Position numbers and translations under genes: made by a program
Assembly: GCA_963674825.1 (NCBI GenBank)
Contig: OY771587.1
Span: forward strand, 192,001 to 256,000
Length of the DNA stretch: 64,000 bases
Reading direction: 5' to 3'
DNA from: Candidatus Cloacimonadales bacterium
GTDB lineage: Bacteria > Cloacimonadota > Cloacimonadia > Cloacimonadales > JAIOQZ01
The notes under the pieces: generated by a model
Told to the model about the DNA's origin: nothing
Seen by the model: only the letters and a program-made list of their open reading frames with translations
Databases searched by the model: none
Shown: positions 30,237-52,578 of the stretch, piece after piece
Layout: every line of letters begins with the position of its first letter
How positions within the stretch are numbered: position 1 is the first letter of the stretch

Positions 30237-30824
30237 TTGAGACGGCTGATCCTTCTCGTCATCCTGCTCCTGTGCGTTACGCTCGGGGCCGAAATCAAAT
30301 TCATCCCCGGCTTTGAATTCGATATCCGCACCGCGCCGGTGGTCGATGTTATTCGCATTGAACACACGGACGGTCGCAAGGACGTACTGGAAGGGAACGG
30401 ATCGCTTGGATTCCTCTTCGAGCCCGGATTCCAACTCATGAAAGAGAGCTACGAGGCCAGGCTTTCATCCGGCATCGGATTCCTGCACAACAATCTCTTC
30501 AACAGCGTTTATTTCTCGCTGGAAGGCAGTGTGTATTTCGACACCGGCTCACACCTGATGGTAGGCCCGCATCTGGGTACGTTCTATCTACTGTCCGCCT
30601 GGGATGGAGACAAGACCAGCCAGGACGATATCTCCATGCAGATGAACAGCCCCGGCATTATCGTCGGCGTCAGCATCACATCGGCAGGATTCGGTGCACG
30701 CATGATCGGTTCGCTCGACTACGTCAGCGGAAAGATCGACCTGGATGGAAAGAACGGATGGGTTCCCGGCGACGACCAGATAGACTATCAGGGACTCTCG
30801 CTCCGGATGGGCCTGGGGTTCTGA
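30237..30824 (+). CDS. Small outer-membrane beta-barrel protein (paralogue 1)
   Basis: Signal peptide; ends GW...DDQIDYQGLSLRMGLGF. Confidence 0.7.
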   Translation: MRRLILLVILLLCVTLGAEIKFIPGFEFDIRTAPVVDVIRIEHTDGRKDVLEGNGSLGFLFEPGFQLMKESYEARLSSGIGFLHNNLFNSVYFSLEGSVYFDTGSHLMVGPHLGTFYLLSAWDGDKTSQDDISMQMNSPGIIVGVSITSAGFGARMIGSLDYVSGKIDLDGKNGWVPGDDQIDYQGLSLRMGLGF

Positions 30825-30912
30825 TTCGTTAGCACAGCGCCGGATAATCTTGACATTTCCTAATCAATAGCCATACTTTGCCATTATGCAACGTTTTAAC
30901 ATTGGGCGGCGC

Positions 30913-31539
30913 ATGAGGCAATTTGTACTGATCGTCATCATGGTTCTCATAGGAGCTTCTTCTTTGCTATCCATTTCCGGTGAGGTGCATCTCGGGCTCA
31001 AGCCTCTCTTTTATTCGCCGGAGAATAGCGACTTCGAAGTGAAGCAGAAAGAGGAATCGCACTCCATGTTCGACCTATCGGGATTTGACGTCGGACCGGA
31101 TTTCTCCGGACTCGGGATCATGTTCTACACAATGTACAGCATTACAGACACAACCTTCTATCTCAACGCCACCACTTCGATGGGCGGGTTCACCGCGCAG
31201 GATTACGGCGTATGGATGTGGGCAAACGAGCTCGCAGCGCTCTATTCACTCACCGATTCTGTTCAAGCGGGATTTGTCGCCGGAATCAGCATCAGTAGCG
31301 GGAGAGTCATGGGAGACAACCCGTCCAACCTCCAATTGAGTTCGCAAGATCCCGGGACTTACTTCGGCATCCGGTTCCAGATGAAATGGACACAGGCACG
31401 TGCGGAATTCAGCATCGTTCATCATCGCCTCGTGTTCGATTACACCATAGACGACGAGTGGTACGCGAATAAGGACGAGCTGGATCTCTCGGGAACTTGC
31501 GTAAGCTTCGGCGTATCCTTCCCTCTGTTCGGGCATTGA
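30913..31539 (+). CDS. Small outer-membrane beta-barrel protein (paralogue 2)
   Basis: Signal peptide; ends WYANKDELDLSGTCVSFGVSF... Confidence 0.7.
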   Translation: MRQFVLIVIMVLIGASSLLSISGEVHLGLKPLFYSPENSDFEVKQKEESHSMFDLSGFDVGPDFSGLGIMFYTMYSITDTTFYLNATTSMGGFTAQDYGVWMWANELAALYSLTDSVQAGFVAGISISSGRVMGDNPSNLQLSSQDPGTYFGIRFQMKWTQARAEFSIVHHRLVFDYTIDDEWYANKDELDLSGTCVSFGVSFPLFGH

Positions 31540-31678
31540 TAATGAAAGAAATGTCCGGTATTCGCATGACGCTGGCGATATCGTTCCGCTTATTCGGCAA
31601 ATAAAGTTAACTCACCATAATTCTTGACAAGATGTACGGCCCTATCGCCAATGCCGATATTATAAAACAGGAGTGCTT

Positions 31679-32290
31679 ATGAAGCGAAATCACCTATTTT
31701 TATTAATCCTGCTACTCGTCCCCATGTTCTGTTTCGCAGAAGTGGACTTTATTCTCGGAATCAAAGAATGCACCCTCATCAGTCCTGACATTGATGGTTT
31801 CAAAGTAGAATCCGGTTACTCGGGAAGCTATTATTCGTACGAAGAATCGGTGGAGATCGAAGGTGCGTCTTCGGTTGGTTTTATTCTCAACACAGGCCTT
31901 GGCATCGATACCGATGTATTGGCGATTCACCTTACCGGCGGCGCAGGTTATATGTTCAACGCCGCATTCGGCACCGGTGTATTCACCGGTGAGACGGATC
32001 TGCTCTTCAAGCTCGGTTCCCACTTCATGATGGGACCTCGCGGTGGTGTGGTATTCTATGCACCGTCCTGGCTTGCAGTCGACGGCGATGTTACATTGAC
32101 GGCTGACGAACCGGGATTCATCGCTGGTTTCGGTGCTTATGGCGCTTGGAGCAAGATCAAAGTCGGTGGAAGCATCGAGTATCAGACAGGTTCATTCGAT
32201 GTAGAAACGGGTGATGGTTGGTACGCCAACGACGATGAGATCGATATCTCGGGTGTAGCGATCCGCCTTGGCGTGACATTTACATTCTAA
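31679..32290 (+). CDS. Small outer-membrane beta-barrel protein (paralogue 3)
   Basis: Signal peptide; ends GWYANDDEIDISGVAIRLGVTFTF. Confidence 0.75.
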   Translation: MKRNHLFLLILLLVPMFCFAEVDFILGIKECTLISPDIDGFKVESGYSGSYYSYEESVEIEGASSVGFILNTGLGIDTDVLAIHLTGGAGYMFNAAFGTGVFTGETDLLFKLGSHFMMGPRGGVVFYAPSWLAVDGDVTLTADEPGFIAGFGAYGAWSKIKVGGSIEYQTGSFDVETGDGWYANDDEIDISGVAIRLGVTFTF

Positions 32291-37000: not shown

Positions 37001-37110
37001 GGAATGGACAGGATAACAGCGGCAAGAATGTCACCAGTGGTGTCTACTACGCCGTTCTAAAAGCAGCTGGCGAAAATCCCGCTGTTCAGAAAATGATCCT
37101 GCTGAAGTAA
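34075..37110 (+). CDS. Large secreted multidomain protein (CARDB/Ig-like, carboxypeptidase-regulatory-like, FN3-like) with T9SS-like CTD
   Basis: Signal peptide, GGPD.FGY.W start, D.N.TNN CARDB motif, G.V.D....PISGATV, C-terminal NFPNPFNPET...KMILLK. Confidence 0.85.
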   Translation: MNTKLVITATLILLLLAVAGFAQDQGGPDTFGYTWKNSNVDDGPVYTWIEPNTTNDAVALYTEFDDDGNTPMIPLNFNFPYYGNVYSEICIGTNGILGFSIENMSHRFSQDFPDATEPDNIIAWLYTDLNPLYTWADSHCYFENIEYNDQDAFMITFVDYAEYYYSGTSPEYTVDVQIILSESGDIIFNYQRIGTSVSLADVSIGMENADATDGLCYVCDDAGFSIPDNFAIEFYRPAATTIDLVASSISGNTTPSVGADTDYTISITNQGVETQSTYTVYLKDANGNELGSAAGTEIAQYESADIVVTWAPETEGAMGIYGEVVVTGDENDTNNTTNEMIVTVQPQGITVISLGTDQTTSNYMPFNYYYRNSLSETIFYPEELGLEGGGLLTAIQFYNHFPTDETVIDTVVNIWVGETELNDLADGYIPSTDLTQVFSGLVNFPAGENDILITFDEPYEYTGGNLVIMTHRPWDPSYYDSNCHFYYSVTEEYPNRTASSPDDTTEFDPANPPTDDLTLYDRIPNISLFFDSSAATGVTGYVYDDQTSPISGATVTMTPGDVEFTTGPSGAFSFLGIEPGTYSFEAVAEGYVTDTIEDVVVTEGETSEITFFLDPVMTVTITVTTNAGSPEGAELVFSNGTDTYEETVPEDGIIHFYEIANGTYTLGITLEGFSYYYDDSVAIDGMTDIDVELTETTEPPTNLECDDEAYFTWEAPADPDMLVRSTSARKQIVQNVTRNTKGTRQEILDRPLQNYRVYLDGTFLSTTNNLNYQFETEGMTVGQTYTAGVSAQYVSGESEIVTVDFIYGYEELYAPINVACDSLGHLTWESGQPASLLRKNAGSKDVQTMDRDFIQYRVYLDDEYVDWTLATEFTFDDLEVNTTYTAGVSAFYTAGNSEIIEVEFIYMPASTSQTDVTPATTAIVGNFPNPFNPETTIQFSTSKPGHTTLTIFNVKGQKVKTLVDANLDANVHSVIWNGQDNSGKNVTSGVYYAVLKAAGENPAVQKMILLK

Positions 37111-37130
37111 TCGGCAGTCACTCAATATCA

Positions 37131-37161
37131 AAGCCGCTCCAAATAGGAGCGGCTTTTTTTT
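37131..37161 (+). terminator. Intrinsic terminator
   Basis: AAGCCGCTCC-AAATA-GGAGCGGCTT plus T run. Confidence 0.88.
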
Positions 37162-37306
37162 ATTGTGAAGGTTACCCAGACGGCCGCGCTGTAGATTCGT
37201 TCGATCGCACCGGCCGTGGTGTTACACGACGAAGGCGTGTTCATTCACGGCGTGCGGGATCGGGCGAATATGCACGTGGCTGCAATCTGTAAAATACCAC
37301 TCCCTT

Positions 37307-37344
37307 CTCCTTCTCCCGAATGTGGGAGAAGGCTCGGGTGAGGG
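37307..37344. repeat. Half copy of the 5707-5810 palindromic element
   Basis: CCTTCTCCCG-AATG-TGGGAGAAGG-CTCGGGTGAGGG resembles 5773-5810. Confidence 0.55.
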
Positions 37345-37384
37345 CCTCACTCTTAAATAAACACGAAGAATGTACCCAAAGCAC

Positions 37385-37415
37385 AAAAAAAGCCCAAGGT
37401 GAAAACCCTGGGCTT
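37385..37415 (-). terminator. Intrinsic terminator closing the ferredoxin/beta-barrel operon
   Basis: Minus strand AAGCCCAGGG-TTTTCA-CCTTGGGCTT plus T run. Confidence 0.85.
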
Positions 37416-37436
37416 GTATCAAGATATTCTAACGAA

Positions 37437-38603
37437 TCAGAATCCGTATTCGATATTCAGGCTATGGACGGTCGTATCGTCCACGTACCTGGCATCGATA
37501 ACAGAAAAACCATAATAAACGCGAGTCTTGTATCGTGGCAGATAATAGGACAAATCGACACCCGCTTTGTATTCGTTCATGCGATCGCTGCCAAAATAGC
37601 GGTGATAAGCACCGTAGAGACTGAACGGACCAAAGTAGTACATCATCCCCATTCGAGCGATGGTAACATTCTCATTAAAGTGAGTCTTGATCGCGACCAG
37701 AAAGCGGTCGATGTGGTTGTCCTTATCGAAATTGAGATTATGCTGCAAGATACCCTCGTAGAAACCATTTCCCCACGCTTTCTGACTGTCGTCCTCGTTA
37801 TACCAGTATTGCTCTGTCACGCGGTTGATCATCATCCAATCGTGGAAATATTTACTGGTAATGCGCAGATCAGCCTCGCCGTACCAGGGCAGGTTTTCAT
37901 AAGCATCGGTGTTCACGGCAGCGAGCTCGATCTGCACCGTATGCACGGCATCGACCTTCTTCAGCATGCGGTTACCGAAACGAGTCTCGGTGTAATCGTA
38001 GGTATCGATATCGTTCATGTCGTTGAAATGCTGGACTTCCACAAACGGCTTCACCCAGTCGGTGAATTTATAGGCGATGCTCGCCTTGCCGTAACCGTCG
38101 CTGTCGATCCAGTAGTCTTCATCCTTGACCATCTCGTTGGTTGCGGCGTCGTACCGGTAACGGTCGTAGTAATTAGCCAGAAACTTCGCTTCCAGCATCG
38201 TTTCGAGTCCATTCCAGGTTCCAAACCAATCCAGTCCGCCGGAATATGAACTCTTCAGCAGAAACTGATCATCTGCGCCGACGATACGGGTCTCAAAATC
38301 GTCTTTGCTGTAGTTTTGCAGGCCGAACCAGGTGGAAATGTAGTAGTTGTCCGAGTATAAAGCGAGTCTCAGCTTATCACGAAGATAGGTACGCTTGTAA
38401 TCGCGTTCGAGTTCGTCATCGCTGTTACTTACCTTGGCATAAAGTGTGTTGGTCAGTTCAAGGCCGTCGCCACCGATACGCTCGAAATCGTACAAGCGTT
38501 CCATGAAGCCTTCGCGGCTATCCGATTCGATGCTGAGTGTTGCTTGCCGTGCGTAAAGAAAACCAGCACTCAGGATTGCGATGAGGATAATCAGCTTTCT
38601 CAT
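37437..38603 (-). CDS. Putative outer-membrane beta-barrel (388 aa)
   Basis: Signal peptide MRKLIILIAILSAGFLYA; Tyr/Phe-rich alternating strands; BAM-type terminus ...HSLNIEYGF; ATGA overlap with upstream gene. Confidence 0.75.
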   Translation of the reverse strand: MRKLIILIAILSAGFLYARQATLSIESDSREGFMERLYDFERIGGDGLELTNTLYAKVSNSDDELERDYKRTYLRDKLRLALYSDNYYISTWFGLQNYSKDDFETRIVGADDQFLLKSSYSGGLDWFGTWNGLETMLEAKFLANYYDRYRYDAATNEMVKDEDYWIDSDGYGKASIAYKFTDWVKPFVEVQHFNDMNDIDTYDYTETRFGNRMLKKVDAVHTVQIELAAVNTDAYENLPWYGEADLRITSKYFHDWMMINRVTEQYWYNEDDSQKAWGNGFYEGILQHNLNFDKDNHIDRFLVAIKTHFNENVTIARMGMMYYFGPFSLYGAYHRYFGSDRMNEYKAGVDLSYYLPRYKTRVYYGFSVIDARYVDDTTVHSLNIEYGF

Positions 38604-38872
38604 TGAATCGCATCCTTCGGGCAGATGGACACGCATTCGCCGCACTGTTTGCATCGTGTCTGGATGATCATCGGTTTCTCGCCATCGTATAGAATCGCGT
38701 TGTATGGGCATACATCAACGCAGCGTCCACATGCGATACAGGCGTCTTCATCGATCTGATAGAACGCGGACGGTGAAGCTGAGGTTGTGATAGTATCTTT
38801 CTTGTCGCAGGCAACGATGAACGCGCCTAATACAGCGATCATGATGAGCGAATAGATCATGAACTTTCTCAT
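38600..38872 (-). CDS. Lipoprotein 2[4Fe-4S] ferredoxin
   Basis: Lipobox FIVA-C-DKK; CIACGRCVDVCP and CKQCGECVSICP. Confidence 0.85.
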   Translation of the reverse strand: MRKFMIYSLIMIAVLGAFIVACDKKDTITTSASPSAFYQIDEDACIACGRCVDVCPYNAILYDGEKPMIIQTRCKQCGECVSICPKDAIQ

Positions 38873-39105
38873 TTGATCGCTCCGAAGGTGCAGGTTGTCG
38901 TGCAGAGCTTGCAATCGATGCACTTCGATTCGTCGATCATGGCTTTACCAGAGTGAACTTGAATCGCCTTGACCGGGCAGGCTTTGACGCAGTCACCGCA
39001 ACCCGTACAGTCAATGCGCGATACTTCCGGCTTGTTCTGGACCGCGGCGATCAGCATCGTAAACGCGACCAGCAGAATCATCGAGATGATAGCAATACGT
39101 TTCAT
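38869..39105 (-). CDS. Signal-peptide-bearing 2[4Fe-4S] ferredoxin
   Basis: MKRIAIISMILLVAFTMLIAA; CTGCGDCVKACP and CIDCKLCTTTCT. Confidence 0.85.
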   Translation of the reverse strand: MKRIAIISMILLVAFTMLIAAVQNKPEVSRIDCTGCGDCVKACPVKAIQVHSGKAMIDESKCIDCKLCTTTCTFGAIK

Positions 39106-39121
39106 GAGCATCCTTTATCGG

Positions 39122-42100
39122 TTAATTATTATAAGCAACAACACCCGGATCGATAGCGTTATAAGGGCAATAGGGCTCGCAATCGCCACAACCGATGCAG
39201 AGATCAGGATTGATCAGCTTGTAAGGGCCTGCATCGTATATCGCATCCTGATCGCAACGGTTGATACAGTTATTGCAATCATGGCAGCGATTCGTGGTGA
39301 TCTTATAAACAATTTTGCCGGCAGGAGAATTGGAGCAGCCGCTCACATTTCCGATCTCGTCGTAAGTCTTGATGGCGAAGTAGACAAGTTCGCCTTCGTC
39401 CAGACCGTTGATGTTGCATGTCTGCGTGGTTCCCGCGGCAGCAGGATCGGGCGGACTGGAGAACAGCGTCGCGCTTGCCCAGTTTGCTTCCGTGATGGCG
39501 GAACTGGAATATCGGATCTCATAATGATCGGCAGTTCCGGTTGCGCCGTCATCCCCGGGAGCGGTCCAACTGATACGGATGGTGGACATATTGACGTAGG
39601 TTGTCGTCACGGTCAGGTTATCGATTGTCTCAGGCGCAGTCGTGTCGTCTCCCAACGTCAAATCAACAATGTTGGATATCTGGGACTGGTTGTCTGCGTC
39701 GTCAGTTGTCTTGATTCCGAAATAATATTGAACATCGGATGACAAGCCGGTCACCGTATATTGCTGCTGCGTTCCCGCAACTGCCGGTGTCGGTGGATCA
39801 GACAGAAGTGTCGCGCTTCCCCAGTTTGTTTCATCGATAATCGTCGTAGCATAGCGGATTTCATAGCTTTCCGCAGTGCCAGTGTTTCCATCATCGCCAG
39901 GCGCAGTCCATGAAAGGAGCGCATCGTTTCCAGATTGTATAGCTTCCAGATCGTCAATATCTGCCGGTGCGGTGGTATCGAATATTCCGGATTCTGCAAC
40001 GTTGGAGATCTGGGCAATATTACCGCCGTTGTCGGTAGCTTTTATCGCGAAATAGAGGGTGACATCCTGTTCCGGTGAAACGACCGTATATTGTTGCGTC
40101 GTTCCAGCTTCGAGCGGATCAGGCGGATTATCGAGCGTCTCGGCATCTTGCCAATTGCTTTCTGTAATCTGCTGCGTGGACATGCGGATCTCATACGATT
40201 CAGCGGTGCCGGTATCGGCATCGTCGCCTGGTGCGGTCCACTGAAGCGTGATATCCGAACCATCGACTGCTGCTTGAAGATCGGCGATCGCAGAAGGCGC
40301 AGTGTCGTCCACAATTTCCGCATTCGCAATATTGGAAAGAGAAGAAACGTTCGCAGCGTCGTCAAATGCCTTGATCGCGAAAAAATAACTTGTATTATCA
40401 TTGGCGCTAAGCCACTCGAATTGCTGCTGTGTTCCGGATTCTTCCGGTGATGGCAGGCCTGTGAGTAGTGTTGCGTTTGTCCAGTTATCGTCATTGATAG
40501 AACTTTCCGATACGCGGATTTCATAGTACGCCGCGGTTCCAGTATCCTCATCGTCACCCGTAGCGGTCCAGGTCAGCATTATCGACTGTCCCTGGGCGAC
40601 AGCGGCGAGGTCGTCGATCTGTGAAGGAGCAGTTGTGTCCGCGTTCGAGTTGGTCTCACCCTGTGCGATATTGGATAAGTTGCTTACGTTCTCCATCTCG
40701 TCCATAGCCTTGATGGCAAACCAGTACGCGGTTTCCGGTTCAAGTCCGGTTACGATTATACTTTCCTGAGTCCCTGCAGGTTGAGGCGTAATCATCTCGT
40801 CAATCGCGCCGATACTGTTCCAGTTGCTGTCGGTTATCGGTTCGGTATAGACTTTGATGATATAGCTTGAAGCTGTACCGGTATCGCCGTCATCGCCGGG
40901 AGCTGTCCAGCGGATTTGCGCCGTGGAAGCCGACGTGTTGGTAACCGTAAGATCATCGACCGCAGAAGGTGCGATGTGATCAGGGATGGCGGATGTTTCA
41001 GCCGATACGACGTTGGATAGCGTCGATTGGTTCTCGCTATTATCGATCGCCTTAACGGCAAAGTAGTAGGTTGTGCTGCTTGTAAGGCCGGTAACCATGA
41101 GCATTTCCGATACTCCAGCCATTTGTGGATCGAGATCGTTGTCGAATGTAGTTGCCTGGGCCCAGTTCTGTGGCGTGATTTCCGATGTGGAATAGCGCAC
41201 GATGTACGCATCTGCTGTACCTGTTGTTCCATCATCTCCCACGGCTGTCCAGCGAAGCGAGATCGATTCCATCTCGATAGTCTCGACTTGCAGCGTGGTA
41301 ATCTGCGCCGGAGCAGTTGTATCCGGGCTGAAAGACGCCTGTGCGTTGTTGGAGACACCTGATTCGTTATCACTGCTGTCGTAAGCACGGATGGCGAAGT
41401 AGTGAATCGCTTGATCAGGCATATCGGTAACCATGAAGCTCTCGGGTGTACCGGCTTCGGACGGGGTGATATCGCTTTCGACCAAAGTTGCTTGCAACCA
41501 TGTCGCATCAGTGATGGCACTGCTCGCATAGCGAATCTCGTAGCGATCTGCGGTGCCTTCGTCGCCATCATCGCCGGGAGCAGTCCAAAGCAGCGTGATC
41601 TGATCCTCGTCGGAAAGCGCTGTAAGGTCTTCGATCGCTGCCGGAGCTGTTTCATCCGCTGCTTCGTCGGAGATCATGACGGAAATAGTCTGCGACTTCG
41701 CATATTGACCGCAATCGTCGAACGCGTGCACTGCAACCTGAACCGTCTGCTGCGGTGTCAGGCCAGAGATATGCCAGGTTTCGGTGAGACCGGCAATCTT
41801 GGGTGGATTGGGAGCAAAATTGTTTTGGATCGCGGTTCCGCTGGCGGTTTTAAGTATGAGCTCATAGCGCCAGGCAATACCCGAAGTGGAGTCATCGCCG
41901 GTTGCAGTGAACTGGATATCCAGCGTTCCGATTGAATCGGAGATTGCGCACAAATCGGTTATTGGAGAAGGCGCGATGGTATCTTCTGTGTATGTAAACG
42001 CGTCGTATTGGCATTGGAAATCGGTAATACAGCGCATGCACTGGACGCATTTATCAGGATCGATGGTCGCTGTCCCGCGGACTTCATCAATGTAGATCGC

Positions 42101-42298
42101 ATTCTGCGGACAATGGAATTCTTCGATACACTCGTAGCAGGCAGTACAATTCGAGTATTCGATGCGGACATCGCCATCGTTACTTGCGTTCTTGCTTATA
42201 TCATCGGTGCAGTAAAAGAGGAGCAATGAAAGAAACGGTAGCAGGAACAGCAGTAAACGATGTTTACGGTTTGCATGCTGAGAAGTTTGTTTGCGCAT
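39122..42298 (-). CDS. Lipoprotein: ferredoxin domain, 8 FN3 repeats, ferredoxin domain
   Basis: LLFY-C-TDD lipobox-like; two Cx2Cx2Cx5C motifs; eight (W/F)TA(P/T/V)GDD repeats; [11 protein letters not shown] and [12 protein letters not shown]. Confidence 0.88.
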
Positions 42299-42301
42299 GA
42301 C

Positions 42302-42835
42302 CTACTCCCCGGCAACCTCAACCGCGATAGCATCAACCGGACAAGCCTGGTCGCAGATGCCGCACTGGATACACTTTCCCTGATCGATCTGCGCGATACC
42401 CTGCTTCATGCTGATAGCTCCTGTAGGGCATTTTTTCTTGCAGATCTTGCAGCCGATGCACTTGTCTTCCTGGACCGCGTAAAGCTTGGATGCCTCTTCT
42501 TCTTGCGCAGGTACCTGAACGGAAGAGGTCTTCTTTTCCACCGGAACCGAGGTACTGTCCGGCTTTGCAGCCGTGGTATCCGCAGCAGCGGTTTCTTCAA
42601 CAACCGAGATCGCCGCAACCGGGCATGCCTTCACGCAAAGTCCGCACTGGATGCACTTTTCACGATCGATTATGGCTTTGCCGTCAACCATCGTAATGGC
42701 CTTCACCGGACATTTCTGTACGCAGAGTGTGCAGCCGATGCACTTGTCGGGATCGACCTTGTGGTATGTTGCCGAAGTGGCCATGAGCATCACGACCATA
42801 AGCGTTGCCAGCAGCATAATAATATATTTCTTCAT
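42302..42835 (-). CDS. Signal-peptide-bearing tandem ferredoxin (4 cluster motifs)
   Basis: MKKYIIMLLATLMVVMLMATSA; four CxxCxxCxxxCP motifs with an Ala/Thr/Ser/Pro/Glu linker; AAGGAG SD before ATG 42835. Confidence 0.88.
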   Translation of the reverse strand: MKKYIIMLLATLMVVMLMATSATYHKVDPDKCIGCTLCVQKCPVKAITMVDGKAIIDREKCIQCGLCVKACPVAAISVVEETAAADTTAAKPDSTSVPVEKKTSSVQVPAQEEEASKLYAVQEDKCIGCKICKKKCPTGAISMKQGIAQIDQGKCIQCGICDQACPVDAIAVEVAGE

Positions 42836-42942
42836 TCTTCTACTCCTTCGTATGAATCGAGTCCATTTATTACATAGGGACAAACAATGCAAGAAAAAAC
42901 CGTGCCGAAATGCGGATATTACTGGAAAATAACGCGGAATTG

Positions 42943-45141
42943 TCAGTCGTCGATGATCAACTCGCCCTCGAGCAGCGTCTTCCACAAACCCGGGATTCTC
43001 ATCTTACCGTCGTGCGTATCGAAGGGTTTCGCCTCCAGGTCCCTGACCATGCTGAGGTAGATCGTCGGATCTGCGGTGCCGTCGTAGTGTCCGTCCGGCG
43101 TATAGGCAAGCCACTGCTTCCCATTTTTCACGTAGATGAGCGACGCCAGATGTTCACCCGTCGTGGAATCGAACAGGAAATACTCGCCGAGTAACCCGTT
43201 CGTGACAATCCTGCTACCGTCTTCGGTGAAGTGGGGATGGAGCTCATAGCCTTCTTCGCCAAAATCACGCGATAGATAGCTATTATACTGAAGCGAATCC
43301 AAATACGTCAGAGAATCGCCCCGATAGATGTTGCCATATCCGACGATCTTGTCGAAATCCCTGGAAAAGGCGAAATTATCCCAACTACCAAGGTTGCAAT
43401 GACGCTCTGGATTCATGCGATCGAAGAGGCAGTAATAGGATATCGTTTCCGAAAGGTCTGTCGCCAGGACAAGCGAACCGCCATTCATGATTTTGTATGG
43501 ATAGTAGCTGTATTCAAAGTATCTTAATTGGTTTGTTTTTTTACCATACATATCGTTTTCAATTTTGTAATAGAGTGGTTTTGCCTGCATGGAATCCAGG
43601 CATGTACCGGTTTCGATATCCCAGCGCTTGTAATATCCAGGCTCTATTATCGTATCCGCCGAATAAGTAAGAAGAATATTGGCTTTATCCGTAAAGCAAA
43701 CCATCCGGCTTGCTTCAGGCAATGTTCGATAAGGCGTATCCCATTCACCATCTTTGTAGATAACGGTGCTATCGGCTTCAGCAATTGCATGCCACTGCTG
43801 GTCAATGCTTTGCCCTGAGTAATTACCGAAATATCGATGTTCCTCAGATAAAAAGTTCGAATATACCAGATATTCATCATTGCTCTCATGGGCGGAATAA
43901 TCGTACTCGTCCGGCAAACTGGACGGCGTAATTGTACCTCTATCATTGTCGGTGAATATCTCGATTTCCATACTGTCGGTAAAACGAATAGAAGCCCATG
44001 GATTATCATCAGGTATGAATTCTGTATATCTACCAGAGCATTCCATTGTTGCAAGCAATGAGAGTTCGTTGGTTGTGGCATTGTAACGGTAAATCTCATT
44101 GTCTATGGTCTTAATGAGAACCTCGTCCGGATCATTGGTTGGATATGCGGAAGATACAGCCGTGATGATTCCTTTCATGCAGTCTACCTGATTCGTTTCG
44201 GTATCAATCACCACAAATGGATATTCGAATGTGCGCCAATTATACCATTCGGATGGTGGCGCAACGAAGATCTTTCTTCCATTGCTTAACGGGATGTTTA
44301 TTGTCCTGTCAGTCCAGGGAATATCATATACGCCTTCGCGTGCTCCCGTCTCGATATCATAGAGCTCAAGTTTCTTGTCATGCGTGTTTATGCATTTGCC
44401 TATGTTTATCAGTTCCGGATTATTTTCACCCCAAGAGTTTACTCGTACAGGAGAAAGGGCCTTCTTCTTGAAGTTCCAGAATCCCCTTTCTTGATTTACA
44501 TTTATTGGTCGAAAATCACCCTTGAGACGGTAGTATTTGTATCTGGCCATTCCATATGACTGACTCAGATCAACCTGCTCCAGCGTTTCACGTGCCGTTG
44601 TGTGCAGCAAAATATTTCCCCGTCCAAGTGATATTATTTCGTTCAGATCAGATGAAAGGATGAGCCTTCTATTGATATCTATATAGGGAAACGTTTTCTC
44701 AGTAAACGTTGTATCGGTTGATCGCAGCTTTGTCTGGTCTCTATCAATACGCTGGGCATAATACATTTCACCTTCCTTGAAAATGAGGACGCTAACATTG
44801 AAATACTTACTTTCCCCTGTTTCAAGATTGCGTTTTACGACCCATGCCACATCTTGATCATGAATAATGTAAAGACTTATTGAGTCCGGTGAGAACTGGA
44901 TATCTTGTATTATCGTCGTCGAATCATAGCCGGGTGGATAGCTGAAGGTTTGGATCATGTGTTTGAAATCACTCGTCCAGATCTGAAATGAATGACCATT
45001 CGAGATCGCTACCAGTTTTCCATCCGGGCTGAAAGCGAGCCATCCAATCCTAATTGAACGGTTGGGCGATACGACCCAGTCGGATGCGATAATGGGCGTA
45101 AGAACGCACAGCAGTAGCACAAATGTGAGGATTCTTTTCAT
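42943..45141 (-). CDS. Secreted WD40-like beta-propeller protein
   Basis: Signal peptide MKRILTF...IIA; LAFSPDGKL, IQFSPD, WDIETG, W.AYTPDG.YDG. Confidence 0.75.
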   Translation of the reverse strand: MKRILTFVLLLCVLTPIIASDWVVSPNRSIRIGWLAFSPDGKLVAISNGHSFQIWTSDFKHMIQTFSYPPGYDSTTIIQDIQFSPDSISLYIIHDQDVAWVVKRNLETGESKYFNVSVLIFKEGEMYYAQRIDRDQTKLRSTDTTFTEKTFPYIDINRRLILSSDLNEIISLGRGNILLHTTARETLEQVDLSQSYGMARYKYYRLKGDFRPINVNQERGFWNFKKKALSPVRVNSWGENNPELINIGKCINTHDKKLELYDIETGAREGVYDIPWTDRTINIPLSNGRKIFVAPPSEWYNWRTFEYPFVVIDTETNQVDCMKGIITAVSSAYPTNDPDEVLIKTIDNEIYRYNATTNELSLLATMECSGRYTEFIPDDNPWASIRFTDSMEIEIFTDNDRGTITPSSLPDEYDYSAHESNDEYLVYSNFLSEEHRYFGNYSGQSIDQQWHAIAEADSTVIYKDGEWDTPYRTLPEASRMVCFTDKANILLTYSADTIIEPGYYKRWDIETGTCLDSMQAKPLYYKIENDMYGKKTNQLRYFEYSYYPYKIMNGGSLVLATDLSETISYYCLFDRMNPERHCNLGSWDNFAFSRDFDKIVGYGNIYRGDSLTYLDSLQYNSYLSRDFGEEGYELHPHFTEDGSRIVTNGLLGEYFLFDSTTGEHLASLIYVKNGKQWLAYTPDGHYDGTADPTIYLSMVRDLEAKPFDTHDGKMRIPGLWKTLLEGELIIDD

Positions 45142-47061: not shown

Positions 47062-48090
47062 ATGCGCACAACCATCACCATCGCTCTGTTATTGCTCGTT
47101 TCGGCTATCTTCGCTTATCCCACACTACAGGGAGAAGGAATAACCAAGTTCACCGAATATGCAGAAGATCATCTTGAACTTATTGATGAAATTACCCTCG
47201 ACGACAAGTCTGTCGTAGTGCGCCGCGCACCGGCAACGAAACATGCCCTTGGCGAAGTGACGATCGAGAAAAGGAAAAAAGAACGAGAATATGTATTGAC
47301 CAAATCTTCAGACCTCGGCGTTACCCTGCGGAAATCCGAGGATCATCAATATTGGGAATGGTATGACGCCAATAACAATCTGTTGAATCGCTGCCCGGCC
47401 AACCCATACATATCGAAAATTGTGCCTGTAAACACCAATGGCTACTGGCTCATGTTTGAAGAGCCAAAAGAAGATCCATACGATTTTATCGAAGAACAGT
47501 ACAATTACGATGGTCCCTTGATCTATGCTGCAGATTTCAGATGCAATGTCGAATCCAGCAACTTCCCCAGCCAGTCCGGTGTCGTTATTTTCGACCAGGA
47601 TGGCAATAAAATGACGCAGGTTGAGCTTGCAGGAGGAAGCATCACAGACATAGATATTAGTCCTCTTGGTAAATATTTCAGGGTTGCAGCCTGGCCAAAT
47701 ATTGTTATAATGACCATCAAAGGGAGTATTGTCTGGCAGAGCGATACAGAGGGCTCACGAACGATAACCTTTTCCCCAAATGAGGAGCTGGCGTTTCTTG
47801 GTGTTGGTCAATGTAAGGTACTGGATTTATCAAATGGGAAATATCTCGCCAATATCCCATGCTTTTTCGAACAAACGACCTCAGTTGCAATTAGCGACAA
47901 GGAGGCTGGGATTGTCGCAGTACCAGGATATAACGAAATTCTTGTTTTCGATATATGGGCCGGGAAACAGATCGCAAGATTCAGACAAAAAGGAACAAAT
48001 ATTCAGCTTTCAGGTGATGGACGGCTCCTATCATTCAGAGGGATAGGGAAAGTTGTTACATATCGGCTTGATGGAATAGATGGAGAATAA
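47062..48090 (+). CDS. Secreted protein, propeller-like C-terminus (array copy 1)
   Basis: Signal peptide; ISP.G, FSP.E, SGDGR blade-like motifs; paralogous to 51544-52578. Confidence 0.8.
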   Translation: MRTTITIALLLLVSAIFAYPTLQGEGITKFTEYAEDHLELIDEITLDDKSVVVRRAPATKHALGEVTIEKRKKEREYVLTKSSDLGVTLRKSEDHQYWEWYDANNNLLNRCPANPYISKIVPVNTNGYWLMFEEPKEDPYDFIEEQYNYDGPLIYAADFRCNVESSNFPSQSGVVIFDQDGNKMTQVELAGGSITDIDISPLGKYFRVAAWPNIVIMTIKGSIVWQSDTEGSRTITFSPNEELAFLGVGQCKVLDLSNGKYLANIPCFFEQTTSVAISDKEAGIVAVPGYNEILVFDIWAGKQIARFRQKGTNIQLSGDGRLLSFRGIGKVVTYRLDGIDGE

Positions 48091-48092
48091 AC

Positions 48093-48197
48093 ATGAGAAG
48101 CTGCACACTAATATTGGCAATAATCCTGATAATGATTCTCGGTGCAGCCGTTCTTTTGGCAGAGGAAATCGAAGATGAAGAAAAAACACAAAATTAA
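48093..48197 (+). CDS. 34-aa signal-peptide mini-ORF (or truncated gene start)
   Basis: MRSCTLILAIILIMILGAAVLLAEEIEDEEKTQN*; GGAG SD at end of the upstream gene. Confidence 0.55.
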   Translation: MRSCTLILAIILIMILGAAVLLAEEIEDEEKTQN

Positions 48198-48260
48198 CAA
48201 ACCGAAAAATATTGACACCTGAAATATACCATTTCCTCATCTGCACAAGAGGAGAATATC

Positions 48261-48602
48261 ATGCGCACAACCACCACCATCGCTCTATTGCTGTTCGTTT
48301 CGGCTATCTTCGCTTATCCCACACTACGGGGAGACGGAATAACCAAGTTCACCGAATATGCAGAAGATCATCTTGAACTTATTGATGAAATTACCCTCGA
48401 CGACAAGTCTGTCGTAGTGCGCCGCGCACCGGCAACTCAAGCAAGATTTCGGATGGGAGCAAATTCGCCTTTTACAGTACCACAGGCTGAAAAATCTGAA
48501 TGCGATTTTCTGGCTCGCTGTATGTTTTCTTTACTCGATGATTACGGATGTGCCCGGATTACAATCGATAATGATGTCGGCATTTATCGAACGAAAAAGT
48601 GA
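48261..48602 (+). pseudogene. 5' fragment of array copy 2; homology ends at 48436
   Basis: Matches paralogues to ...VRRAPAT, then unrelated sequence. Confidence 0.8.
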
Positions 48603-48967
48603 CTGGAAGCGCCGTGGATTCGGTATCTACTACAGGTTAACCTACGTCATTTCGGAGTGTTTCCTATGGTTTGACTGGTACTGGATAAAGCCCGATAAAG
48701 GAAGGTGGAAAGAGCATTTACAGCTCAAGGTCAGGTTCGAATGAAAAAATGGGGGTATACCTGATTGTGTAAGAAAAAGATTGACAAACATCATGAGCTG
48801 GATTCATTTTAGAAGTTGTCTCATGGCAACGTTCCATGACAAAGCAGTTTTGCAAAATGGGGTGAAGTTGTGATTCGCAGCCTTCGATTCGATGAGGAAC
48901 AATTTGTTGGGATTAACACCAACCGTTGAAACGAAATAACTAATTTTCAATAAACAAGGAGAAAATT

Positions 48968-50224
48968 ATGAAGAAAATTACTTTGTTTTTGTTGTTTGTT
49001 CTTGCTGGTCTGTTGTTTGCCGAAGTTTCAATTCAGGAAATAGCTAACCTATTGAATCATGACCCATTTGATTTAACAGAAACATTGCTGGAAAGAGCTA
49101 AAAATGCAAGGGATCTTTCCCTTTCAGAAAAGCTTATTCAGACTTGGCAAGATGGCGCATGGGTAAATCAGGGAAGATATACGTATTCATATGACGAAAA
49201 TGGTTTTCTTGTGGTTGAACTGTTTCAAATATGGTCCGAAGAACAATGGATCAACGCAGGGAACACAAACTACTCCAACAATCCAGATGGACAGCCAGCG
49301 GAAATTATGTTACAGCAATGGGACGGCACCAATCAAGTTTGGGTTGATTATTTTTGGGCAACATATGAATATGATGAAAATGACAACTTGTTGCATGGGT
49401 TACTACAAGTAAACATGGGAGAAACCTGGGTCAATTGGGTTTACGCTACCAATACTTGGAGTAACGATAATCTCCTCATGGAAGTCTTTAAAGAAGAGTG
49501 GAGTAGTGAGTCCAATAATTGGGTAAATTATGAGATAAACACCTACACTTATGATAATGGGAATCTTATTTCATACATGGAACAAGAATGGCAGGACGGC
49601 GCCTGGCTAAATAAAGGGCTGGATACATACACAAACAATGCTGAAGGGTATAAAATCGAAATGATCTTCCAACAATGGCAAGAGTCAAATCGAAGCTGGG
49701 ATAATGCTTATCAAGAATTGTTTGAGTATGATGGGGATTGGAACATTACAACAGAATATCGAAATAACTGGAGTTGGAGCGGTCAAACCTGGACAGATTA
49801 TAGGGTGAAGTATAACACTTGGGAAGATGATGTCCTGGTAGAAACGCTGGAACGTGAGTGGAATGATTCACGTGAATGGATTGATATCAGCAAAACCAGC
49901 AATACCTATATGTTAGGTATTGATAGTGAAGAGGAAATGAATCCGATCAGCATTGTGTTGACTAATATGCCCAACCCATTCAATCCAACGACTACCATTA
50001 TGTTTTCACTGGTAGCCAACAGCAGAATTGAACTGGCGGTGTATAATATCAAGGGTCAGTTCGTGAAGATGCTTGCCCGTAATCCTTTCGACAAAGGAGA
50101 CCATCGTGTTACTTGGAATGGCGATGACGTAAATGGAAAACCGGTTAGCTCAGGTGTTTATTTCTTCAGGCTGAAGGTTGATGGTGTAACTGAAGTCGTG
50201 AGAAAAAGTCTGCTTCTGAAATGA
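48968..50224 (+). CDS. Secreted Trp-rich repeat protein with T9SS-like CTD
   Basis: About nine ~30-aa 'Q.W....W.N....Y.YD' repeats; PNPFNPTT...YNIKGQ...SSGVYF...KSLLLK; more AT-rich than flanks. Confidence 0.85.
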   Translation: MKKITLFLLFVLAGLLFAEVSIQEIANLLNHDPFDLTETLLERAKNARDLSLSEKLIQTWQDGAWVNQGRYTYSYDENGFLVVELFQIWSEEQWINAGNTNYSNNPDGQPAEIMLQQWDGTNQVWVDYFWATYEYDENDNLLHGLLQVNMGETWVNWVYATNTWSNDNLLMEVFKEEWSSESNNWVNYEINTYTYDNGNLISYMEQEWQDGAWLNKGLDTYTNNAEGYKIEMIFQQWQESNRSWDNAYQELFEYDGDWNITTEYRNNWSWSGQTWTDYRVKYNTWEDDVLVETLEREWNDSREWIDISKTSNTYMLGIDSEEEMNPISIVLTNMPNPFNPTTTIMFSLVANSRIELAVYNIKGQFVKMLARNPFDKGDHRVTWNGDDVNGKPVSSGVYFFRLKVDGVTEVVRKSLLLK

Positions 50225-50277
50225 TGGATTGTTTGGGCAAGAGCCAGTAGATAAACCGCGTTCTTCAAAAACCATAT

Positions 50278-50322
50278 AGGGAGTGTGAGACGCTGAAAAA
50301 AAGTCTTAGCTCCCTCTTTTTT
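50278..50322 (+). terminator. Probable terminator
   Basis: AGGGAG.....GAC...GTC....CTCCCT plus T run. Confidence 0.5.
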
Positions 50323-50584
50323 CAAACCGTGTGAATAAATTGCCAGCAGCTCGTGACCTCCCGTACGTTACCCCCAGGATTCAGAAGAGTCTCTGGCGCG
50401 ACCCATTTGGAAGTCGGGATTATACGGTTTTCCGAATGAGATTTCATGAACGCCATTGATATCTCGTTCAGAAAATACTCTCCAATAGAAGTGGTCTCGG
50501 AAATTAGGACTTGCGTATAAGTGGAAATCTTGCTCCATTGAACCAGAGATAAGAGAGAGTATTTAAGGAGTAAGAGAATGAGGA

Positions 50585-51373
50585 GACCTCGGCGTAACCC
50601 TGCGGAAATCGGAAGATTTGCAATACTGGGAATGGTACGACGCCAATAACAATCTGTTAAATCGCTGCCCGATCAATCCGTACATCTCCGAAATCGTGCC
50701 TGTCAACACCAATGGGTACTGGCTCATGTTTGAAGAACCCAAAGAAGATCCATACGATTTTATCGAAGAACAGTACAATTACGATGATCCCTTGATATAT
50801 GCTGCAGATTTCCGTTACAACGTCGAGTCCAGCAATTTCGCCAGCCAGTCCGGGGTCGTTATCTACGACTCGTACGGAAACAAAATGACACAGGTTGAGC
50901 TCGGGTGTGGGAATGTCAGTTCTGTTAAATACAGTCCATCAGGCAATTACTTCATTGTTGCAGCACATCCCAAGAACTTCCTCATGAGTATCGACGGACA
51001 CATTATACGAAAGTTCCAGAAAAGTGGGGGCATTTCCATCGTGTTTTCCCCCAGCGAAGAACTGGCAGTGCTCGCCCCTCCTTTTCCGTATGTAATCGAT
51101 CTCGAGACGGGGGAAATACTTGCCGAGATTTTTTCTTCATACGGATCATCAACGGTTGCTATCAGTGACAGAGAGGCTGGAATTGTAGCGGTTAAAAACG
51201 GTGGTCGTGGAAGTGGTATCCAAATATTTGATATATGGAAGGGAAAACAAATTGCACATTTCAAGCGAGATGGCACATATATTCAGCTCTCAGGTGATGG
51301 ACGGCTTATCTCATTCAAATCAAAAGGAGATATAATGCGTTCATACCTACTTGATGGCATAAGAGGAGAATAA
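50585..51373 (+). pseudogene. 3' fragment of array copy 2 (no signal peptide or start)
   Basis: Homology resumes at DLGVTLRKSED; in-frame TGA just upstream. Confidence 0.75.
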
Positions 51374-51375
51374 TC

Positions 51376-51480
51376 ATGAAAAAAAATACACTGTTTTTCG
51401 TTTTAACCCTCCTGATGATTATTAGCGCAGCCGTTCTTTTGGCAGAGGAAATCGAAGATGAAGAAAAAACACAAAATTAA
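51376..51480 (+). CDS. 34-aa signal-peptide mini-ORF (second copy)
   Basis: MKKNTLFFVLTLLMIISAAVLLAEEIEDEEKTQN*. Confidence 0.55.
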   Translation: MKKNTLFFVLTLLMIISAAVLLAEEIEDEEKTQN

Positions 51481-51543
51481 CAAACCGAAAAATATTGACA
51501 CCTGAAATATACCATTTCCTCATCTGCACAAGAGGAGAATATC

Positions 51544-52578
51544 ATGCGCACAACCACCACCATCGCTCTGTTTTTGCTCGTTTCCGCCATCTTCGCTTAT
51601 CCCACACTACGGGGAGAAGGAACAACCAAGTTCACCGAATATGCAGAAGATCATCTTGAACTTATTGATGAAATTACCCTCGACGACAAGTCTGTCGTAG
51701 TGCGCCGCGCACCGGCAACGAAACATGCCCTTGGCGAAGTGACGATCGAGAAAAGGAAAAAAGAACGAGAATATGTATTGACCAAATCTTCAGACCTCGG
51801 CGTTACCCTGCGGAAATCCGAGGATCATCAATATTGGGAATGGTATGACGCCAATAACAATCTGTTGAATCGCTGCCCGGCCAACCCATACATATCTGAA
51901 ATTGTGGACGTCAACACCAATGGCTACTGGCTCATGTTTGAAGAGCTAAAAGAAGATCCATACGATTTTATCGAAGAACAGTACGATTTCGATGGTCCCT
52001 TGATATATGCTGCAGATTTCAGATACAATGTCGAATCCAGCAACTTCCCCAGCCAGTCCGGGGTCGTTATTTACGACCAGAATGGCAATAAAATGACGCA
52101 GGTTGACCTTGAGTGTGGAGATGTAAGTTATATTGAAATGAGTCCTTCTGGAAACTACTTCATTGTTGCAGCACACCCCAAGACCTTCCTTATGAGTATA
52201 GATGGACTCATTAAAAGAGAATTCATGAAAAGCGGAGGAGTTTATATCAGTTTCTCTCCCAGCGAAGATCTGGCAGTACTTGGTCCTCCCCTGCCGTATG
52301 TAATCGATCTTGAGACAGGCGAAATACTTGCCAAGATTCATGGCACTTACGATTCATCAACGATTGCGATCAGCGACAAAGATGCTGGAATTGTTGCAGT
52401 GAGAGGAAATATCGGAATTCTTGTTTTCGATATATGGGCTGAGAAACAGATCGCAAGATTCAGACAAAACGGAACGAATATTCAACTCTCAGGCGATGGG
52501 CGGCTCCTATCATTCAGAGGGATAGGGAAAGTTGTTACATATCGGCTTGATGGAATAGATGGAGAGCAGTCAGAGTAA
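51544..52578 (+). CDS. Secreted protein, array copy 3 (intact)
   Basis: Near-identical N-terminal half and C-terminal tail to 47062-48090. Confidence 0.8.
   Translation: MRTTTTIALFLLVSAIFAYPTLRGEGTTKFTEYAEDHLELIDEITLDDKSVVVRRAPATKHALGEVTIEKRKKEREYVLTKSSDLGVTLRKSEDHQYWEWYDANNNLLNRCPANPYISEIVDVNTNGYWLMFEELKEDPYDFIEEQYDFDGPLIYAADFRYNVESSNFPSQSGVVIYDQNGNKMTQVDLECGDVSYIEMSPSGNYFIVAAHPKTFLMSIDGLIKREFMKSGGVYISFSPSEDLAVLGPPLPYVIDLETGEILAKIHGTYDSSTIAISDKDAGIVAVRGNIGILVFDIWAEKQIARFRQNGTNIQLSGDGRLLSFRGIGKVVTYRLDGIDGEQSE

Follow-up and report, generated by a model that had tools for sequence, protein, structure and literature searches.

A Cloacimonadales lipoprotein with a ferredoxin at each end of an FN3 stalk, possibly the surface extension of a haem-free porin-ferredoxin conduit

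What use does a cell have for a lipoprotein that carries a ferredoxin at both ends of a stalk too long for electrons to tunnel through? The question is raised by a gene, here called B, on the reverse strand of a 64,000-nucleotide stretch of contig OY771587.1 from an anaerobe, a Candidatus Cloacimonadales bacterium (the window; plain coordinates below refer to it). B is the second gene of a putative operon of five (A to E), the others encoding the small exported ferredoxins A, C and D and a predicted outer-membrane beta-barrel, E. Our reading, drawn from sequence comparison and given a probability of about 0.5, makes B an optional extension, on the cell surface, of a haem-free conduit of porin and ferredoxins across the Cloacimonadota envelope. 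The gene and its parts are as follows.

39122..42298, reverse strand: gene B, lipoprotein of 1058 amino acids, ferredoxin-(FN3)8-ferredoxin
42209..42298, reverse strand: signal peptide of B (residues 1-29) and predicted lipid-bearing Cys30, reading LLFY-C30
42167..42208, reverse strand: tether (residues 31-44), with S/T at +2, D at +3 and K at +7
41984..42166, reverse strand: base ferredoxin (residues 45-105), two Cx2Cx2Cx5C motifs
39305..41983, reverse strand: stalk (residues 106-998), eight FN3 repeats of the WTAPGDD type
39125..39304, reverse strand: tip ferredoxin (residues 999-1058), related to ferredoxins tagged for the type IX secretion system (T9SS)

The preliminary description of this stretch had named the LLFY-C sequence, the paired Cx2Cx2Cx5C motifs, eight repeats of about 110 residues and a C-terminal two-cluster domain. 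All of these were seen again in the open reading frame (ORF) and by Pfam (fn3 with E 1.6e-41, Fer4_7/Fer4_10 at residues 44-92 and Fer4/Fer4_21 at 1000-1050). Both ends have the two-motif, eight-cysteine signature of bacterial 2[4Fe-4S] ferredoxins (Fer4), at C51-54-57-63 and C84-87-90-96 in the base (both Cx2Cx2Cx5C) and at C1005-1015 and C1034-1044 in the tip (both Cx2Cx2Cx3C). The odd spacing of the base is a loop insertion, since its profile aligns with solved 2[4Fe-4S] repeats (RnfB, FwdF, MvhB) with two additional residues before the fourth cysteine of each motif; this insertion was present in both motifs in 52 of 56 homologues. The repeats start at residues 106, 215, 326, 440, 554, 664, 774 and 885. 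Repeats 2-8 are 41-53% identical to each other and repeat 1 is 26-32% identical to the rest. As described, none carries a cluster motif, the only stalk cysteines being 117, 196, 961 and 988. An ESM Atlas look-up with B returned FN3 clusters only (0.76-0.79), and the Pfam scan found no T9SS-type C-terminal domain in B.

The N-terminus runs from positive charge through a hydrophobic stretch to Cys30 and has no twin-arginine motif. That it is a lipoprotein signal agrees with a G, A or S at -1 in 54 of 67 homologues, while LLFY-C itself is not a canonical lipobox. B is not an assembly artefact, because its repeats are only 26-53% identical as protein, contigs from the same sample agree and the B proteins of three congeners likewise have eight repeats; the public contigs are identical base for base over 37244-43500, and are probably the source data rather than an independent check.

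Relatives of B were collected in two protein searches (best 120 matches each). Among the matches listed, 188 proteins bore the repeat. In 67 of them both ferredoxins were present and in 115 neither was; the rest were five truncated B proteins and one 16-CxxCH cytochrome. The preliminary description had been staked on the terminal cysteine motifs being conserved, and they were kept in all 67 full-length homologues, with at least eight cysteines at each end (exactly eight at the base in 66). The homologue sets overlap and their members are kin, so that these counts measure conservation and are not independent trials. The named matches with both ferredoxins, among those listed, were all from Cloacimonadota (Candidatus Cloacimonetes, Stygibacter, Tenebribacter), the closest loci being from Candidatus Cloacimonadales. 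A profile of the base domain matched 53 of 232 Cloacimonadota genomes, once in each. A pattern scan of contigs gave just four close loci, and the range beyond the phylum rests on the protein searches. The architecture had also been supposed not to be an already characterised family; none was found in Pfam, NCBIfam, PDB or the literature searched. That literature, mostly open-access papers, yielded no description of B or its operon, and the words 'fibronectin' and 'Fe-S' are absent from the main text of the paper on the Ace Lake genomes, although the genera described there carry B (PMC8542988).

Repeat number, whose variation had been proposed as a check, ranged from 4 to 14, as expected of a spacer. 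The 42 complete genes had four (16 genes), five (7), six (10), seven (1), eight (6), twelve (1) or fourteen (1) repeats. The twelve-repeat gene (L024:7330-11877, genome G219) has an in-frame TAA inside the base ferredoxin and is either broken or misread. In locus L039 (genome G180) B is split into two ORFs. First repeats are 42% and last repeats 54% identical among themselves, against about 30% and 40% to other repeats; judged by these identities, the first and last repeats are position-specific and the middle ones expand and contract. The tip had been called canonical, which is correct for B of this genome and does not extend to the whole family, in which the second tip motif ends in Cx1C, Cx2C or Cx3C in 23, 9 and 23 of 55 complete proteins. 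Tyr1056 at the tip is invariant (43/43).

The stalk itself is best described as an ordinary spacer. Repeats of the WTAPGDD type also serve as generic spacers in secreted proteins that carry T9SS tails, dockerins or hydrolases, and the statement that the motif is shared with animal CLCA proteins was borne out by a TIGR00868 match (E 1.5e-72) to the FN3 part of B and by a chicken CLCA2 peptide that contains WTAPGDD (PMC9651043). The repeat type is where the likeness ends: B has no CLCA protease or vWA domain, its TIGR00868 score of 244.7 bits, limited to the FN3 part, is far below the cut-off of 900.85, and the repeat also occurs in the 115 carriers without ferredoxins among the matches listed. 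The acidity of the repeats, noted in the preliminary description, proved not to be special on comparison. The stalk contains 138 D+E against 24 K+R and is about twice as acidic as the same repeat in non-ferredoxin carriers, but 41 of 129 proteins of this genome with a T9SS-type C-terminal domain are as acidic or more so. The idea of a stalk specialised to template FeS was not supported, its charge being ordinary among the secreted proteins of this genome.

At an assumed 3.5-4.2 nm per FN3 domain, B with its eight repeats would extend over 28-34 nm and stalks across the family over 14-59 nm, four to eight repeats corresponding to 14-34 nm and fourteen to 49-59 nm. Tunnelling rates fall to 10^-8 per second at 3.5 nm. 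The statement that the two ends lie beyond tunnelling distance thus stands. Hopping through stalk Trp and Tyr was rejected on potential grounds (general knowledge); the aromatic content of the stalk is 8.5%, compared with 7.5% in non-ferredoxin carriers.

Could the tip swing back to its own base? The repeat period is 106-116 residues at all junctions, save one family variant of 130, and a horseshoe fold with a long central hinge was rejected, the junctions being short throughout. A toy chain of linked rigid rods, modelled with excluded volume ignored (assumed sizes, 400,000 draws per setting), gave no draw in which the tip approached its own base to 3 nm when the hinges were limited to 30 degrees; for four to eight repeats the same was true up to 45 degrees. 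Meeting needed hinges of at least 60 degrees, and at 90-120 degrees the effective concentration was 0.03-0.3 mM. Four repeats, a common length in the family, provide three hinges. A self-contained swinging arm would therefore need very loose hinges, and in this model pivoting at the anchor, with hopping between neighbouring B molecules, T9SS-tagged ferredoxins or shuttles, is likelier. Of the proposed tether or swinging arm presenting a distal ferredoxin, the distal surface position is favoured by the kinship of the tip (below), and the simple swinging arm is disfavoured by the toy chain and the lack of a long hinge.

The other members of the gene set, all on the same strand, are the following.

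42302..42835, reverse strand: gene A, 177 amino acids, Sec-type signal and two 2[4Fe-4S] domains with a low-complexity linker; likely periplasmic relay
38869..39105, reverse strand: gene C, 78 amino acids, signal peptide and one 2[4Fe-4S] domain; core gene
38600..38872, reverse strand: gene D, 90 amino acids, lipoprotein with one 2[4Fe-4S] domain; core gene
37437..38603, reverse strand: gene E, 388 amino acids, predicted 20-strand outer-membrane beta-barrel without plug
37380..37415, reverse strand: terminator-like hairpin (11 bp) and T-run, 22 nt past the E stop

The five genes are tightly packed in the order A-B-C-D-E, with several stop/start overlaps, and would encode proteins for 12 clusters (A 4, B 4, C 2, D 2). 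The hairpin and T-run suggest that the operon ends after E; the hairpin came from a consensus scan in which the number of sites was not above chance, and its position is the argument. A promoter scan of the operon gave nothing above chance. Relatives contributed 52 loci with B, of which 42 extend at least 1.9 kb downstream and 10 are too short. The order B-C-D-E was found in 41 of these 42, the remaining one being rearranged, and D directly precedes E wherever the order is intact. A lies 5' of B in many loci, and in several families it consists of an extra N-terminal domain and one ferredoxin. Two further genes accompany the set: F, a DsbD_2 match (E 1.8e-21) with Cys-Pro motifs in two helices, is adjacent in 36/42 loci, and G, a NapH-like protein with Pfam Fer4_5 and CxxxCP motifs, lies 5' of the operon in 23/52. 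In this genome (G000; one contig, 99.57% complete) both are present, but away from the operon. F lies at G000:C1:3413436-3414800 (L088:10436-11800, reverse strand) and in this genus its C-terminal part is extended, looks duplicated and contains a Cys-rich insert.

E matched no family in Pfam or NCBIfam. A protein search with it returned 36 representatives, and its ESM Atlas look-alikes were barrels. AlphaFold2 with 76 aligned sequences, the run used here, gave a model with pLDDT 90.7 and pTM 0.80 that is all barrel from residue 18, with 20 strands; the pLDDT without alignment was 30.9. The modelled E thus differs from a TonB-dependent receptor, which has an N-terminal plug domain and 22 strands. 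A complex prediction of E and D and C with the last repeat and tip ferredoxin of B scored 0.00 in two runs, for which no controls were folded, and counts neither for nor against such a complex. The idea that B is a scaffold for the small ferredoxins A, C and D found no support.

E was present in 112 of 232 genomes of the phylum: 64 of these lack B, and the other 48 belong to the 53 that have it. Twenty of these 64 B-less loci were examined. All twenty had C-D-E and 16 had F, and in the slot before C two other genes were found: T, a ferredoxin with a T9SS-type C-terminal domain, in 10 loci, and B', a short lipoprotein in which a single terminal ferredoxin accompanies 0-2 FN3-like domains, in 5; both were present in 3 and neither in 8. 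T was found in none of the 52 B loci, many of which end short upstream, and this genome carries T elsewhere. Its own T gene (G000:C1:683119-683901; L089:122-901, reverse strand), which lies away from the operon, encodes a signal peptide, a 2[4Fe-4S] ferredoxin, a carboxypeptidase-regulatory-like domain and a T9SS-type tail. T has the features of a T9SS cargo, namely a Sec signal and a sorting domain (Por_Secre_tail above cut-off in three of four T genes scanned and FlgD_ig in the fourth, and likewise in the T of this genome), and PorV and SprA are encoded in the genome. T9SS cargoes are exported by Sec and fold in the periplasm before their passage through the outer membrane (PMC11285876). A profile of T9SS-type tails matches 212 ORFs of this genome, a sign that it secretes a very large set of proteins.

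Among 101 ferredoxin domains placed in a tree, one branch (support 99/93) united 14 of the 15 B tips with 10 of the 11 T domains. The B base domains made up a group of their own (15/15, 98/90) and B' another; by pair scores, 13 of 15 B tips had T as their closest domain. The grouping of the tip with T9SS-tagged ferredoxins favours a distal position at the cell surface. The simplest reading of these sequences is that the tip does the job of T there, held by lipid and stalk in place of a sorting tail. Long stalks always come with a base ferredoxin and B' comes without, which would fit a base that acts as the contact on the barrel side once the tip is out of reach.

The tether is 14 residues long in 62 of 67 homologues, and D at +3 was found in 66/67, compared with 15 of 115 regex-called lipoproteins of this genome. 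K is present at +7 in 53/56 and S or T at +2 in 51/56, +4 is acidic in just 24/56, and the mean net charge is -1.6. In the tether of D, by contrast, K occupies +3 and the net charge is positive. Surface-export signals of Bacteroidetes lipoproteins read SDDDD or SDDFE (PMC5080379), with a polar +2, acidic residues after it and a negative net charge over +2 to +6, and the B tether resembles such a signal (LES), loosely and across phyla.

How would such proteins receive their clusters? As a working rule, Fe-S proteins receive their clusters in the cytoplasm and leave it already folded, by twin-arginine translocation (Tat). TatA and TatC were not found in this genome (controls matched 11/14), TatC was found in two of 53 B-bearing genomes, and a twin-arginine motif is present in only three of 67 B signal peptides, which sets B apart from the Tat-exported Fe-S class (NapG, MauM, Rieske type). 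As no Tat was found, A to D most likely cross the inner membrane unfolded, and any clusters would be acquired outside the cytoplasm. Lgt is present in this genome. CcsA/CcmC was not found in it, the operon encodes no CxxCH protein, and the only ORF of the genome with two CxxCH motifs reads as DnaJ by its N-terminus. In a genome without detectable cytochrome c maturation, F is a natural candidate for keeping the ferredoxin cysteines reduced.

Put together, the proposed conduit would work as follows. A, B, C and D would leave the cytoplasm unfolded via Sec and acquire their [4Fe-4S] clusters outside, with the DsbD_2/CcdA-like F holding their cysteines reduced. The NapH-like membrane protein G would connect the cytoplasmic and membrane electron pools to A in the periplasm, and C and D, in or against barrel E, would bridge the outer membrane. 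The lipid would hold B on the outer face, with the base ferredoxin beside the barrel exit, 14 residues away from the anchor; the tip would reach up to about 30 nm outwards, clear of the surface polymers, to an acceptor such as a mineral, sulfur, humics or a partner cell. Electrons would bypass the stalk: while the rods pivot on their anchors, they would hop between base and tip of neighbouring B molecules, T or soluble shuttles. Outward flow, as a sink for the reductant of a fermenter, is the likelier direction.

Several observations weigh against this conduit. The base-to-tip step is its weakest part, and the insulating stalk cannot conduct. The best fold matches of E were generic outer-membrane barrels, with TonB-dependent receptors (Z 18.2-15.4) above MtrB (6r2q_B; Z 14.9, root mean square deviation 6.0 over 344 residues), which stood among many unrelated barrels. 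No precedent for cluster insertion outside the cytoplasm was found in the literature searched, and no Fe-S maturation gene with a signal peptide was seen in this genome. In G of this genome, Ser replaces Cys in the first C-terminal cluster motif. The core works without B and T, to judge from the 8/20 sampled E loci that have neither, and the T profile was built from the same ten T genes that were later counted. The ferredoxin tree was built on 56 columns, with a bootstrap that was still unsettled; C and D were subsampled to 12 each, and one B tip and one T fell outside the joint branch. Finally, the tether comparison is a loose match to a signal defined in Bacteroidetes, made on homologues that are kin.

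A wider proposal, which we offer tentatively and with the odds somewhat against it, is that about half of the Cloacimonadota possess a haem-free conduit made wholly of Sec-exported, externally matured 2[4Fe-4S] ferredoxins that pass through a private barrel. The ferredoxins would be displayed in three separately evolved ways (T9SS tail, short stalk and long two-ended stalk), and a brush of B would conduct by pivoting and hopping, as a protein redox polymer.

The nearest known systems are the porin-cytochrome conduits (Shewanella MtrCAB, PioAB/MtoAB, Geobacter Pcc), in which an outer-membrane barrel is likewise encoded with small exported redox proteins and a lipoprotein partner. The set described here shares the predicted barrel, the redox partners and a conserved gene order, but no multihaem CxxCH proteins are encoded in it and no CcsA/CcmC of their maturation system was found in the genome; the B operon is haem-free and each redox part is a 2[4Fe-4S] ferredoxin. 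E, with about 20 strands and 370 residues, is also smaller than MtrB (649 residues), and the continuous cofactor chain of those conduits is replaced in B by two redox ends with an insulating stalk between them. Candidate conduits in iron oxidisers combine porins with cytochromes or a copper oxidase, and the portion of the survey consulted names no ferredoxin version (PMC5566968). FN3 domains joined to an exported redox domain are known from OetF of syntrophic sulfate reducers, a fibronectin-domain cytochrome of a likely conduit for extracellular electron transfer (PMC10553843), and are also seen in P0121, the cytochrome among the matches listed. Both are thought to contact the matrix or a partner; unlike B, they use haem rather than Fe-S and are not two-ended. 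P0121, a secreted protein of 1830 amino acids with 16 CxxCH motifs followed by five WTAPGDD FN3 repeats, is a haem analogue of the stalked design.

NapG and MauM are exported by Tat. G, with its Fer4_5 domain and CxxxCP motifs beside the exported polyferredoxin A, recalls the NapGH, MauMN and NapH-like modules (PMC8238504). Here, however, the signals are of the Sec, lipoprotein or T9SS type, an outer-membrane barrel and surface ferredoxins are added, and no terminal reductase or FMN-binding domain was seen. F likewise matches DsbD_2 of the CcdA/DsbD_2 thiol-reduction pathway, but no cytochrome c maturation was found here and the candidate substrates are apo-ferredoxins.

Among the alternatives, the one that survives best, and is nevertheless unlikely, is that the system scavenges iron or iron sulfide. 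B and T would then be apo-ferredoxins that collect Fe(II) or FeS, or reduce Fe(III), and hand it to C/D and E, with F and G providing reductant. Sec would deliver apo-proteins, as this requires, and in this genome NifU and a class V aminotransferase (likely cysteine desulfurase) are encoded about 8.5 kb from F. In locus L067 (11710-14431) Fur and FeoB directly follow the operon. This was noticed at one locus only, the neighbours having been read by eye and not all scanned, and in locus L023 (3171-6187) and, by reading, in L039, the operon is preceded not by Fur but by a sensor kinase-like gene and a sigma-54 activator. The best fold matches of E are receptors for metals and vitamins, and FusA of Pectobacterium, also an outer-membrane barrel that handles a ferredoxin, matched with Z 14.1. 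FusA takes host ferredoxin as an iron source. It is, however, an 809-residue TonB-dependent receptor, whereas E lacks a plug, is only about half as large as such receptors and works with self-encoded ferredoxins. Twelve predicted clusters per operon would moreover be a heavy iron cost for an uptake system.

Somewhat less probable still is the same conduit with a periplasmic B, which would reach from its anchor in one membrane towards the other and join G and A to C, D and E. Lipoproteins usually face the periplasm (general knowledge), the span of four to eight repeats is of the order of the periplasm width, and the invariant C-terminal Tyr could dock on a membrane partner. Against this stand B proteins of up to fourteen repeats, with lengths that vary within one family, the LES-like tether, and a tip that is sister to a T9SS-tagged ferredoxin occupying the same operon slot; A is, besides, already a periplasmic relay. 

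A non-respiratory reducing shield, in which surface electrons would destroy O2, peroxide, polysulfide or toxic metals or activate surface enzymes without energy conservation, is improbable. F does belong to a family of thiol electron transport, a thioredoxin follows F in loci L014 and L016, and NapH-like and DsbD modules carry out varied extracytosolic redox tasks (PMC8238504), but no reductase, oxidase or peroxidase is a conserved neighbour and the long stalk is left unexplained. [4Fe-4S] ferredoxins are, in addition, oxygen-labile (general knowledge). It is just as improbable that the cysteine motifs bind zinc, other metals or no metal at all (disulfides) outside the cell and that B is structural or adhesive with ferredoxin-fold caps, as the lack of a detectable Tat system to export holo-proteins, the variable spacing of the last tip cysteine pair and the use of the same FN3 type as a generic spacer of secreted proteins might suggest, given that A, B, C, D, T and B' all keep complete eight-cysteine dicluster signatures with C-P-x-x-A-I tails and that the NapH-like Fe-S membrane protein is co-conserved.

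Sediments, anoxic lakes and digesters commonly harbour fermenting Cloacimonadota, and the coupling of these bacteria to their partners is for the most part attributed to H2 or formate (PMC8542988, PMC7382037). Screens for electroactive microbes seek multihaem cytochromes and would miss a conduit of ferredoxins. If it exists, the outer membrane is crossed by a second chemistry, and the working rule of cytoplasmic Fe-S assembly and folded export by Tat would be broken. The ferredoxin domains, at 60 residues, are small enough for direct expression, which makes extracytoplasmic Fe-S assembly approachable. Contact-dependent electron transfer would have a natural ruler in a stalk whose length can be adjusted and which bears a redox centre at both ends.

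Just beyond the operon, an Rfam scan of 37100-37440 gave no family at gathering level. Between genes, at 37184-37345, lies a dispersed repeat for which BLASTN gives 18 more matches elsewhere in the genome, 33-162 nt long and 71-94% identical. It folds as two long hairpins (z -5.4), contains no tRNA and is possibly a miniature inverted-repeat transposable element or an element resembling repetitive extragenic palindromes. Elsewhere in the genome, at G000:C1:2535738-2538097, two adjacent similar proteins have two ferredoxin motifs each, the second with a hydrophobic N-terminal stretch. Within the window, 47062-52578 holds three or four tandem copies of a secreted, beta-propeller-like protein of about 340 residues, with near-identical N-termini and some of them truncated; the array is interrupted by a 418-residue protein with a T9SS-like tail. 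At 30237-32290, three adjacent secreted proteins of about 200 residues with aromatic C-terminal residues are likely small outer-membrane barrels.

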